A DNA stretch of 64,000 nt, from positions 14,389-78,388 of the forward strand of contig CAYJJI010000003.1 of NCBI GenBank assembly GCA_964370475.1, in the 5' to 3' direction. Within the stretch, counting starts at the first letter, position 1; the number at the start of each line of letters is the position of its first letter. Positions 44,666-59,618 of this stretch are shown in pieces. The DNA is from an uncultured Muribaculaceae bacterium (GTDB lineage: Bacteria > Bacillota_I > Bacilli_A > RF39 > UBA660). The notes beneath the pieces are model-generated. The model had not been told where the DNA came from and made no database searches. It saw only the letters and a program-made list of their open reading frames with translations. The position numbers and the translations under genes are program-made.

Positions 44666-46292
44666 TGTTTATCATTATCTTGTTTGCTTCTACTATAAAC
44701 CAAATTTGTTGAATTGTTAAATTACATGCTTCGATGTGAGTAGATCTAATGAATATATCTATATAACTTAATAAAGTATCAATATTATTTGGATTTATAA
44801 GTTCTTCTGTTAGGTTATAGTTATTGATACGATATTTATCTACTATAACTTTTGCAACATTATATTCTTGATATACTGGAACTGAAGATATAACTAAGTT
44901 ATTAGGATTATTACAGTAAATATCAAATTTTTCTATATGTTCCATAAGTTCATCATATGTTGTAACATTATATGTATCTTTCATTTCTTTTTTCTTAAAG
45001 TATTCAAAATCTCTGAATGCTGTTAAAAAGTCATCAAGTGTAACATATTCGTTAACTATTCCTTTTACTATATTATAAAATTTGTATGAATCTAAACCTT
45101 GATATATTGCCAGTAGTTTATCTGCATACGTTGTTACGTCAACAACTAGTTGTTTTTTAGGCTTTTTCAATAATTCTTTATTTTTAAATGATAACATTAA
45201 TTTTTCAGTGAACGATAAATCATCAAAGATTATTTTATTTATCATTTTCATTCCAGTTTCAAGTTTTTCTTTTCCTTCTTCTATTTCTTTAATAGGTCTA
45301 GGTAGTTTAAAGTTATCAAATAAATTTTTATTGTATTCTACATATGGAATAAAGTGAACGTATTGTGAATATTCAATTAAAACGTTTCTTAGTTTTTTTA
45401 AGTTTTCATGATTACTTGTTGAGTTTTCATCGTAATTTCTTTCTTTGTCTTGAATAACCATAACATTTTCAGCTGCTAATCTTGTTTTACTATCTTCAAA
45501 GAATTCATTAATATCTATTTCGCCTTTTATTGCCATATCTATTATATCTTGTAGTGATTCTTTTCTTGCATATGTATATTCATAATGAACTCTTTTTAAT
45601 TCTTTCATACATTCTTCATAACTATGTATTCCATATTTTCTTTTGTTTTCTATTTGAATATTAGTTACTTCTTTTGTAAATTCTTCAGAATATTTACTAC
45701 ATAAAATTCTGAAGTTTAGCTCTATATGTTTTATAATATTTGGACATACCCAATATATTTTTTCAAACGACTTTTCTAACAAGAAGAAATTCGGTCTTTC
45801 TCTATTTGCTTCTCTATAAAATTCTTTCATATATTCATATACATAAGGTGTTAGTTTGAAGTATTTTTCTGATAAACTAATATTAATTAATTTAAATTTG
45901 CTTGATAGTTCGTTAATAATCTTATTAACTTCAACGAAATCAAAGTTATTATAAAATCCTAATTTAAATAGTAAGTTGTCAAACCCTAGTTTTTCAAAGT
46001 AAGTTGTTTGTGGGCTTAAACTTTTTGCTAATAATTTATAGTCATGAATTTTTGCTTTCATGTCAGCTAAATTTTCTTTTGTTTCTATTTCTATGTCTTT
46101 AAGTTCAATAGATTTACTTTTTAAATCTATGTATTTTGTTACATTTTCTTTATAAGAATTGTATTTCCTTTTATATTCTTCTATTTTTGTTTTAAGTGCT
46201 TTTCTTTGTGTTTTTGTTTTGGTAGAAGATGATTTAATTATTTCTTTTTTTATTTCTGTATCTTTATCGATATAAGTTAAAAAGTTATTCAT
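44652..46292 (-). CDS. Hypothetical cytoplasmic protein (K/E-rich, coiled-coil-prone)
   Basis: The 554-aa ORF's likely start is at MNNFLTY (46292), which gives an 8-nt RBS spacing from GAAGAAGG. The ORF-track start at 46316 would overlap the upstream gene by 32 nt. Confidence 0.4.
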   Translation of the reverse strand: MNNFLTYIDKDTEIKKEIIKSSSTKTKTQRKALKTKIEEYKRKYNSYKENVTKYIDLKSKSIELKDIEIETKENLADMKAKIHDYKLLAKSLSPQTTYFEKLGFDNLLFKLGFYNNFDFVEVNKIINELSSKFKLINISLSEKYFKLTPYVYEYMKEFYREANRERPNFFLLEKSFEKIYWVCPNIIKHIELNFRILCSKYSEEFTKEVTNIQIENKRKYGIHSYEECMKELKRVHYEYTYARKESLQDIIDMAIKGEIDINEFFEDSKTRLAAENVMVIQDKERNYDENSTSNHENLKKLRNVLIEYSQYVHFIPYVEYNKNLFDNFKLPRPIKEIEEGKEKLETGMKMINKIIFDDLSFTEKLMLSFKNKELLKKPKKQLVVDVTTYADKLLAIYQGLDSYKFYNIVKGIVNEYVTLDDFLTAFRDFEYFKKKEMKDTYNVTTYDELMEHIEKFDIYCNNPNNLVISSVPVYQEYNVAKVIVDKYRINNYNLTEELINPNNIDTLLSYIDIFIRSTHIEACNLTIQQIWFIVEANKIMINNKKD

Positions 46293-46620
46293 TTGCATTA
46301 CCTTCTTCCATATCAATTATTTTTTGTTCTTCGTTATCAAGCATATCTATAAATTCTTCTATTTTATAATATAAATCAATTAGTTCTTTATAGTTTAATA
46401 ATGATAAGTCGAAATCTGTTTTAGTTGGTTTAATTTCTTTTGGTGTGTTATTTATCGTTTTTTTTACCACCTTTTTTACTGGTGATTTTTTAGCTACTAC
46501 TTTTTTAGGTACTGCTTTTGCTATTGTTTTTTTAGCAGCTGGCTTCTTAGTAACTGGCTTTTTTTGTGTAGCTTTTTTTACTACTGGTTTTTTAGTTGTT
46601 TTTTTATCTTCTTTTTTCAT
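46285..46620 (-). CDS. Small histone-H1-like lysine-rich protein with acidic C-terminal helix
   Basis: KKPVVKKATQKKPVTKKPAAKKTIAKAVPKK… repeats. 111 aa. Confidence 0.45.
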   Translation of the reverse strand: MKKEDKKTTKKPVVKKATQKKPVTKKPAAKKTIAKAVPKKVVAKKSPVKKVVKKTINNTPKEIKPTKTDFDLSLLNYKELIDLYYKIEEFIDMLDNEEQKIIDMEEGNANE

Positions 46621-46634
46621 TATTAACTCCCTCT

Positions 46635-58930: not shown

Positions 58931-59042
58931 TTTACCCTTCCTATTCTATATTTTTATTCACTATTTAATTTTATCATAATCGACAAATTTTGACAATATA
59001 AAGATATGGTTATTTTCCCATGCTTAAATAAAAGAGAATTTT

Positions 59043-59618
59043 TTATTCTCTTTTATTTTTTCTTTTTTTAGGCTTTGGTGTAACCTCTTCTTCATCTTCG
59101 TCAGTTCCATATTTTATTTCTATTATTAATGCATATATTTGATAGATAAATATTAGGAAACAAGGTACTACTATAACAAATAAGAATACCCATGTTGATT
59201 GGATTATTGCTAAAAACGTTCCAATTCCTTTATATACTTCTGTTGCTTCTCCAGCAACATATGCCATTGTAAATTGTGTCCCGTTTTCATAAGATATTCC
59301 GCCTTCATCAACGAATACTTCACCGATTATTCCGAAGTCTAATTCGATTGAGTCATCTTCCATTTTGCGATAACCAAATATTTCATCTCCTACTTGAATT
59401 TTATCAAGTCTTTTAGCTTTTACTATTACTAAGTCGCCTTCTTCATATTTAGTTGAAGATATGTTGTTGTTTATTACTACTAGAGTTGTATCTCCAAATT
59501 GAGGTACTCCATAATCATTATGATTTAATAATACTATTGACATTAATATTGCAAATGCAAAGAACAATACTACTACAGTTGCTATTATTATTTTTTTTAC
59601 TATTTTCATTTTTACCAC
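59043..59618 (-). CDS. SipW-like pseudo-peptidase (same TM-domain-TM-basic-tail architecture, catalytic Ser and His absent)
   Basis: 191 aa. VPQFGDTTLVV replaces the SGSMEP box and no His box is present. IQVGDEIFGY parallels IKVGDAISY of the canonical SipW. Confidence 0.45.
   Translation of the reverse strand: MVKMKIVKKIIIATVVVLFFAFAILMSIVLLNHNDYGVPQFGDTTLVVINNNISSTKYEEGDLVIVKAKRLDKIQVGDEIFGYRKMEDDSIELDFGIIGEVFVDEGGISYENGTQFTMAYVAGEATEVYKGIGTFLAIIQSTWVFLFVIVVPCFLIFIYQIYALIIEIKYGTDEDEEEVTPKPKKRKNKRE

Follow-up and report, generated by a model that had tools for sequence, protein, structure and literature searches.

A candidate surface-fiber locus of uncultured gut Bacilli that joins SipW-type signal peptidases, anchored beta-sandwich proteins and an McrB-like GTPase

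The closest described relatives of the system treated here appear in a single paragraph of Bell et al. (eLife, 2024; PMC11090510), who recognized "another large clade" of McrB GTPases with a shortened NxD signature, in which the next residue is usually E or a second D, and named it CoCoPALM. In this clade the GTPases are fused to an FtsB-like transmembrane (TM)/coiled-coil domain, coiled coils occur in the McrB and McrC homologues alike, and the McrC homologue is found together with signal peptidases taken as pilus assembly factors. Analysis of the clade was deferred to a later paper, and neither TasA nor pilins are mentioned (PMC11090510). A full-text literature search found the term CoCoPALM in no other paper, and the supplementary files of Bell et al. 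that were examined hold no entry for it. Here, we analyzed a locus of this kind, genes A to M, in a window of 64,000 nucleotides (nt), meaning the whole stretch of DNA under analysis (contig CAYJJI010000003.1, assembly GCA_964370475.1). The locus is a CoCoPALM member, with its clade identity resting on textual criteria. A first-pass annotation of the window had known of no described system with this combination, a claim that falls to the same paragraph: the combination was noticed computationally and named in 2024, with no experimental study since, and is not undescribed. New here are the secreted families, their cleavage motif, a filament-subunit-like fold, a SipW paralogue predicted to be dead, the fusion or splitting of a SipW peptidase and an adaptor, genes M and L, and the lineage-wide conservation of the cluster.

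We hold with moderate confidence that the locus encodes a surface-fiber system in which a cytoplasmic GTPase module is coupled to processing or assembly, through a mechanism that we infer from its parts; a fiber or surface-assembly role, as first proposed, is still the best reading. The genes and their window coordinates are listed below, with protein lengths in amino acids (aa).

59043-59618, minus strand: A, 191 aa, first gene of the operon, SipW-like protein
56720-58930, minus strand: B, 736 aa, SipW-type domain joined to a cytoplasmic domain
55197-56720, minus strand: C, 507 aa, McrB-like GTPase
54040-55182, minus strand: D, 380 aa, McrC-like partner
53447-54043, minus strand: E, 198 aa, SipW-type protein
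52209-53429, minus strand: F, 406 aa, anchored protein
51543-52151, plus strand: G, 202 aa, anchored protein, the sole plus-strand gene of A-L
50575-51297, minus strand: H, 240 aa, anchored protein
49157-50551, minus strand: I, 464 aa, anchored protein
47887-49131, minus strand: J, 414 aa, anchored protein
46635-47762, minus strand: K, 375 aa, anchored protein
46285-46620, minus strand: L, 111 aa, 26% Lys, with an acidic helical C-terminus
44652-46316, minus strand: M, 554 aa, cytoplasmic, rich in helix and coiled coil, no assigned family

Our open reading frame (ORF) calls agree with the positions, strands and order given in the first-pass annotation, and the ORFs are intact under table 11 in a window of ~26% GC. 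When the junctions were read in the window, the gaps of 14 nt between C and D and 17 nt between E and F stood as claimed, whereas the ATGA overlap (4 nt) was found at D/E and the B/C junction is really a 1-nt overlap, TAATG.

The product of gene C is a membrane McrB-like GTPase, as first suggested. It matches the McrB model NF008457 with an expectation value (E) of 3.6e-6 and AAA_5 weakly, and the only PDB chains found with a profile of 20 sequences were the AAA+ chains of Escherichia coli McrB (E 2.9e-5), with which the Walker A, Walker B and Asn-Asp signature of C align. These motifs read GISGTGKTS (Walker A), ILDEMN (Walker B) and IGTINNDDST (signature), the last being invariant in 20 homologues. 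Because the aligned signature is N-N-D-D, beside N-H-D-E and N-T-D-E in the coiled-coil GTPases of Polaromonas and L. plantarum, respectively, and N-T-A-D in E. coli McrB, C is assigned by alignment to the McrB proteins with the shortened NxD motif. Near its N-terminus, C has a single strong TM helix (56-74); a basic stretch comes next, and then a short heptad segment (86-115). Nearer relatives of C than E. coli McrB (31-38% identity, E ~1e-50) are large coiled-coil "AAA family ATPases" on plasmids of Polaromonas, Deinococcus and Nostoc, some of which adjoin DUF2357 proteins. A relative of the GTPase domain is also encoded on MT835511.1 (40037-41104), an unannotated "Bacteriophage sp." contig from human feces, with 31.5% identity over 57% of C.

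The N-terminal domain of McrC plugs and activates the McrB hexamer, and it is this domain, DUF2357 (PF09823), that was matched by D above the cutoff (E 1e-5) and by all of its 28 homologues analyzed (best E 5.7e-14). None of these 28 matched a nuclease family. In the D-family alignment, TYENRFIYTL and PPIKKTNVILKNPNFQ stand out as conserved blocks, and acidic residues of the D..ExK type are not conserved. The layout of D is DUF2357, a coiled segment (heptad 180-216 by a crude predictor) and a helical C-terminal part, and a D family profile retrieved only kinesin coiled-coil noise from the PDB. From its domain content, D is best described as an McrC homologue reduced to the N-terminal domain and predicted to be nuclease-less. 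A canonical McrBC type IV restriction system was considered and ruled out, since the locus has no NxxD signature, no DNA-binding domain and no nuclease. The features by which CoCoPALM was described are present instead, namely the NxD signature, signal-peptidase genes and, next to the GTPase gene, a DUF2357 McrC homologue that contains a coiled segment. Of the FtsB-like fusion, the TM plus coiled-coil architecture is there, and similarity of C N-termini to FtsB/FtsL/DivIC is sub-threshold only (E 0.004-0.12 in 6/10).

Three SipW-type proteins had been proposed, and all three are borne out. E scores 77.3 bits and the N-terminal part of B (residues 1-170) 64.3 bits against TIGR02228, the archaeal/endoplasmic reticulum (ER)-type signal peptidase I model of NCBIfam (cutoff 51.85); both match the Bacillus subtilis SipW model in the NCBIfam scan, and B matches Peptidase_S24 as well. 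A alone gives only a weak match, and its relationship emerges from profile-profile comparison with the E family (hhalign 99.3% over 177 columns). Each of the three has two TM helices (13-31 and 150-168 in B; 10-28 and 148-166 in A) and a C-terminus predicted to be cytoplasmic. In the E family, Ser53, His96, G115, N118 and D122 are kept at 95-100% (40 homologues), which identifies E by sequence as a canonical SipW-type (ER/archaeal-type) signal peptidase I. B retains the Ser, His and G..N..D motifs and is predicted to be an active SipW-type peptidase. Thus the hallmarks of SipW (Ser in GSMxP, His, the G..N..D box and two TM helices) are shared by B and E and incomplete in A. Across the A family (40 homologues) the catalytic Ser is replaced, His is changed to Gly and the GxxN..D box (box E) is deleted; because of these losses, A, guessed at the outset to be a pseudo-SipW, is predicted to be a conserved pseudo-peptidase, a catalytically dead SipW paralogue. 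Its cytoplasmic tail is acidic and then Lys-rich. In B, the SipW domain (1-170) is followed by an acidic/coiled linker and a cytoplasmic domain of ~330 aa for which no Pfam or PDB relative was found; in the PDB, its profile matched nothing beyond a TIM barrel of AI design (E 1.2e-3, 34 columns). By eye, this domain had been suspected of being a degenerate EAL/TIM-barrel receptor for cyclic di-GMP, implying control of the LapD-LapG type, and the Pfam and PDB searches gave no support for this.

F to K are six secreted or anchored beta-sandwich proteins of the Sec type, in two families. Each has a single N-terminal hydrophobic anchor and an acidic mature part (net charge -9 to -35). The first family unites G with the N-terminal ~200 aa of F (hhalign 95-96% over 165-169 columns); the C-terminal ~200 aa of F occur in a "long" variant only. 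The second comprises K, J and I (hhalign 100%; I versus J, blastp E 1e-56) together with H, which reaches 90.8% over 37 columns with K and shares only the C-terminal strands ("VWLEGxD") with K, I and J by blastp and hhalign. Between the two families, the likeness is confined to the signal region (92-95% over 42-47 columns). I is Ala/Thr-rich and the most acidic of the set (net charge -35), and I and J are candidate major fiber subunits. K has a 47-residue Lys-rich extension before its signal anchor. H, with a TM helix at 30-48 and no AWF motif, may stay membrane-anchored.

A cleavage-site motif runs through both families. With a slash for the predicted cut, it reads VTYA/WF in F, TYS/RY in G, STFA/WF in I and J, and STYA/WF in K, and as family motifs S-T-Y-A-W-F (K, J and I), T-[YFL]-A-W-F (F) and T-Y-A-[KR]-Y (G). 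The secreted proteins evolve fast, and their only invariant residues lie at this predicted signal peptidase I (SPase I) site: T24, Y25, S26 and Y28 in G, and A28 and W29 in K. The general form T-[YF]-A-x-[FY] parallels the GT[YWF]A[YA]F of TasA/CalY; TasA is cleaved between A and A/Y, and its solved fiber chain begins at A28 (8aur_A).

The structure model of K (predicted local distance difference test, pLDDT, 91) has as its nearest fold the donor-strand-exchange filament subunits, that is, archaeal threads, cannulae, TasA and chaperone-usher pilins. The neighbors, with Z values that denote low-Z fold similarity, were:

Sulfolobus acidocaldarius thread (7pnb), 6.3
FmlH, 6.1
Pyrodictium cannula CanX (9h8b), 5.8
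FimH-FimG, 5.6
TasA fiber (8aur), 5.4
CS17, CFA/I, CS1, FimA and DUF1102 tube, 5.1-4.8
Pyrobaculum bundling pilin (7ueg), 4.5

The G model (pLDDT 74) is a generic beta-sandwich/jelly roll, with the TasA fiber at Foldseek rank 38 (E 1.5e-3) and a disordered segment (22-41) right after the signal anchor. A G-family profile retrieved nothing from PDB sequences at E up to 10.

That these genes belong together is seen from their conservation. Relatives of C were detected in at least 587 genomes when one genome per species was scanned, and full-length C homologues at 61-88% identity number more than 8000 clusters. The best 80 carriers are uncultured metagenome-assembled genomes from gut, rumen and digester, labeled as Bacilli, Tenericutes, Mollicutes, Erysipelotrichaceae and Clostridium sp. 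CAG:567. We then compared 81 loci from different species, searching their ORFs with the window proteins; because the 10-kb flank truncates many of these loci, the lower gene counts are minima. Homologues were found as follows:

C, 81/81 loci
D, 79/81
E, 76/81
B, 74/81, upstream of C
F, 73/81
G, 66/81
A, 64/81
K, 44/81
H, 34/81

The order is constant, [M] A [G-like] B C D E F G [H K .. M] with G on the opposite strand, and the median gaps are 8 nt (B to C), 15 (C to D), 6 (D to E) and 10 (E to F). C is the most conserved component (55-79% identity across the 81 loci; median 58%), with medians of 34% for D, 43% for E, 35% for A, 32% for B and 26-43% for the secreted proteins. Because the GTPase is the most conserved part, and since it and D are linked to SipW genes in 76-79 of the 81 loci, the McrB-like pair is not a mobile insertion, the very outcome that was to be checked against the idea of a single system. 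The fixed opposite orientation of G in essentially all loci leaves the surface-layer variation once entertained for the locus without support. Phase variation or an invertible element is ruled out, the orientation of G being the same in the loci examined. On our reading, the cluster is a vertically inherited, chromosomal trait of uncultured, low-GC, small-genome Bacilli of gut and rumen.

The state of B varies among the loci. It is fused, as in the window, in 31 of 68 loci and split in the other 37 into a SipW of ~170 aa and a soluble protein of ~330 aa, the gene for which is always the immediate upstream neighbor of C; genomes with a split B have additional G-like secreted genes between the two halves. 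This fusion/split pattern links signal-peptide cleavage to the GTPase module, and the 31 loci in which a SipW is joined to the GTPase-adjacent domain bear out the proposal of one functional unit. F homologues fall into length classes of ~200 and ~400 aa, the window having the long form (L027-L081 versus L001-L026; F at ~13.2-14.5 kb in locus coordinates), and the class tracks with the split or fused state of B, so that the system appears to have two architectural subtypes. Elsewhere, giant proteins are encoded directly upstream of the cluster, at 50-4852 in L061 (1600 aa, GGN-type repeats) and 1592-5290 in L001 (1232 aa), and may be adhesins that use the cluster's machinery.

The limits of the unit also follow from this comparison. 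The bounds first given, 46285-59618, enclose real genes and leave out M, and the conserved unit reaches 44652. It spans 44652-59676 with M and L included, because both recur beside the cluster in other loci: M homologues in 33/81 loci, again with many cut by the flank, and L-like ORFs upstream of M in at least three other loci (L030, L039 and L069). M is heptad-rich by prediction, with no Pfam match and no predicted TM helix. The end of L overlaps the annotated start of M, and Lys-rich low-complexity stretches occur at two sites, L itself (46285-46620) and the N-terminus of K (47622-47762). No relation was detected among the B C-domain, M and D.

The mechanism that we propose for a GTPase-coupled fiber is as follows. 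Sec would insert the pre-subunits, held in place by their signal anchors, and cleavage by SipW-B and SipW-E would follow T-[YF]-[AS]. Each of the two active peptidases may serve one motif class: the G-like genes cluster with SipW-B, and the AWF genes come after SipW-E. The freed N-terminal strand of I, J or K could then enter the next subunit by donor-strand complementation, in the manner of TasA, archaeal threads and cannulae, to give an acidic surface fiber. The jelly-roll proteins G and F would be accessory, adhesin or nucleator subunits, while H, with its uncleaved anchor, and the pseudo-SipW A may serve as a membrane base. On the cytoplasmic side, D, the McrC-like finger protein, would activate hexameric C as McrC activates McrB, and C would dock on the cytoplasmic domain of SipW-B, where GTP hydrolysis could gate or drive processing and assembly. 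The boldest form of this proposal is a hitherto unrecognized, GTP-dependent kind of pilus biogenesis in Gram-positives, in which an McrB-derived hexamer, activated by a nuclease-less McrC and physically coupled to signal-anchor cleavage through the SipW cytoplasmic domain, would gate or power donor-strand polymerization of a fiber of several subunits as a near-universal, vertically inherited trait of the lineage; we regard it as tentative and, on present evidence, doubtful.

Several observations weigh against a GTPase-coupled fiber. F to K do not match the TasA/camelysin models (PF12389, NCBIfam TasA/CalY, TIGR04088) at E up to 0.1, nor any other Pfam or NCBIfam family, and PF12389 found no match in 36 G-family members. 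Against a TasA/CalY profile of six sequences (B. subtilis TasA, 100% identical to 8aur_A, and five Bacillus plasmid homologues), hhalign gave at best 17.7%, for the short F family, and 0.7-4.9% for the others, none of it significant. By sequence, then, the proteins fall outside the TasA family. The first-pass description of six TasA-superfamily secreted proteins was right as to six anchored proteins; what they share with TasA is the signal motif and low-Z fold similarity. The closest relatives of C are predicted defense GTPases, namely the PADLOC candidate PDC-M26A (E 3.9e-37) and plasmid-borne CoCoNuT-like genes. Contact between the GTPase module and SipW-B is deduced solely from fusion and adjacency, no filament has been observed, and the B C-domain, M and L gave no recognizable fold or family in Pfam and PDB searches. 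Finally, the donor-strand fibers of the TasA, thread and cannula type assemble, to our knowledge, without a nucleoside triphosphatase (NTPase), and the need for a GTPase is unexplained.

It is conceivable that the cluster is a secretion and processing module for surface proteins that do not polymerize (adhesins, coat or matrix), in which the GTPase acts as a SipW regulator or in quality control and not as an assembly motor. We consider this unlikely. Distinctly less probable is an envelope defense or conflict system related to CoCoNuTs, in which an McrBC-like sensor or motor would govern the membrane peptidases, with the secreted or surface proteins serving as effectors or decoys against phage in place of a housekeeping fiber. 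Beyond the PDC-M26A match, its appeal lies in the NxD branch neighbors of C, which are predicted type IV restriction-like systems (PMC11090510), in the nearest non-family relatives of C, which are plasmid-borne and lie beside helicases and DUF2357 proteins, and in the fragmentary relative on a fecal phage contig. However, the operon contains no nuclease (D lacks one, and family scans of A-M matched no HEPN domain or other nuclease), synteny is kept in at least 80 species with the motor under strong purifying selection, and the surroundings are housekeeping genes (addAB, phosphoketolase, IF-2 and PNPase), the window having no integrase or transposase close to the operon. The locus is not defense-like: C is its most conserved component, no full-length copy of C was found in phage or plasmid collections, and no other component matches PADLOC.

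A division or cell-cell-connection structure, in which the FtsB-like anchor would bring the GTPase to the divisome and the subunits would build a septal structure, a sheath or cannula-like connections, seems to us very improbable. The resemblance to FtsB/FtsL falls short of significance and may stem from TM-plus-leucine-zipper architecture only, and division genes are absent from the neighborhood. Chance juxtaposition, with an unrelated McrBC cassette inserted into a sipW-tasA-type matrix operon, draws on the frequent mobility of such cassettes and is refuted by the same order in 76-79/81 loci, the fusion of SipW to the C-adjacent domain in 31 loci, tight or overlapping junctions, and the lack of a nuclease and DNA-binding domain.

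Consensus scans gave the following candidate regulatory features of the region:

59677-59696, minus strand: terminator-like hairpin of the upstream DUF6512 gene, marking the 5' boundary of the locus
51491-51518, plus strand: sigma-70-like promoter 5' of G (10/12, consensus match only)
51350-51379, minus strand: sigma-70-like promoter 5' of H (TTGACT-18-TATAAT, 11/12, the region's best; consensus match only)
47791-47816, minus strand: hairpin with an 11-bp stem between J and K, with a poor T-tail
44638-44659: bidirectional hairpin that closes the locus after M (consensus scan)

The promoter at 51350-51379 probably starts an H-I-J-K-L-M transcript. The J/K hairpin is possibly an internal terminator or attenuator; it stands just after the Ala/Thr-rich I and J, and an attenuator there may raise expression of I and J over K-L-M. 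The I/J region has the highest GC of the window (0.35 versus ~0.26). No riboswitch or other known RNA was found by Rfam in the window or the locus.

The window is otherwise ordinary chromosome. It encodes phosphoketolase, IF-2, PNPase and addAB-type helicases, as well as two products that suggest a wall of the Gram-positive type, an LCP protein and a protein with a sortase domain. The operon is separated from addA by a gene for a multi-pass DUF6512 membrane protein (59695-60201, minus strand; E 7e-13), cut off from A by the terminator-like hairpin and not beside the cluster in the other loci inspected; it is probably unrelated to the cluster. At 30673-34930 (plus strand), the gene for a 514-aa protein that ends in a sortase domain (PF04203, E 2e-13) immediately precedes a 900-aa ORF. 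No Pfam family matches this ORF, and nowhere in the window is the base composition more extreme than there (GC 19%, GC skew +0.48). This ORF may encode a sortase substrate or adhesin, which would make it part of a second surface-protein system in the window. Other long ORFs without a Pfam family at E up to 1e-5 are at 5839-9135 (minus strand, 1098 aa), 13161-15146 (plus strand, 661 aa) and 17818-19296 (minus strand, 492 aa).

The well-studied donor-strand fibers of the TasA, thread and cannula type all assemble by themselves, extracellularly and with no input of energy, and we know of McrBC motors only as nucleic-acid-directed restriction machines. A conserved operon that joins donor-strand-type subunits to such a motor would represent either a new, energy-coupled way of building fibers in Gram-positives or a new cytoplasmic control of signal peptidases, and in either case, if true, a defense motor would have been recruited for cell-surface biology. 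Were the GTP-dependent pilus reading to hold, it would amount to exaptation of a restriction motor for surface assembly in a major uncultured gut lineage. With hundreds of carrier species and the GTPase as the most conserved part, the system likely matters for the attachment or envelope of abundant gut bacteria. The analysis supplies testable parts, namely candidate subunits, cleavage sites, a putatively dead peptidase and a fused cytoplasmic adaptor.

Among known systems, the operons tapA-sipW-tasA of B. subtilis, sipW-tasA-calY of B. cereus and the sipW-bsaA type of Clostridium perfringens likewise place a SipW-type peptidase beside secreted beta-sandwich substrates. The first of these had been named as the only SipW module, which overlooks the SipW matrix system of C. 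perfringens (PMC11580942). The cleavage-site motif T-[YWF]-A-x-[FY] is common to our locus and the TasA-type operons, and the TasA fiber is among the structural neighbors of K. Unlike those operons, the locus shows no TasA/CalY sequence homology and has three SipW paralogues, one of them predicted to be dead, and six substrates in two families. The module of GTPase, McrC-like protein and cytoplasmic domain is absent from the TasA-type operons, and TasA polymerizes without an NTPase. The archaeal donor-strand filaments used for comparison, namely the threads of S. acidocaldarius (Saci_0406, PMC9715654), the cannulae of Pyrodictium (CanA/CanX) and the bundling pili of Pyrobaculum, differ in their archaeal hosts, in clusters with no reported NTPase or McrBC-like genes and in sequence (7-9% identity).

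With E. coli McrBC, the locus has in common the AAA+ GTPase core (Walker A/B, Asn-Asp signature and fold family) and a partner with the McrC N-terminal domain. Unlike E. coli McrBC, which has NxxD, a DNA-binding domain and a PD-(D/E)xK nuclease, it has NxD, a TM/coiled-coil anchor and a nuclease-less partner, and is not mobile. Type IV pili couple a prepilin peptidase with a hexameric assembly ATPase. The analogy with the locus, which involves no homology, is that presubunits are anchored in the membrane, a peptidase is dedicated to them and a hexameric NTPase acts from the cytoplasm; in contrast to type IV pili, the locus would combine cleavage outside the anchor by SPase I with all-beta subunits and an NTPase of the McrB clade and not of the PilB/GspE kind. 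CoCoPALM, which as published lacks an analysis of secreted proteins, shares with the locus an NxD McrB GTPase whose N-terminus carries a TM helix and a coiled coil, the DUF2357 partner and the signal-peptidase genes.

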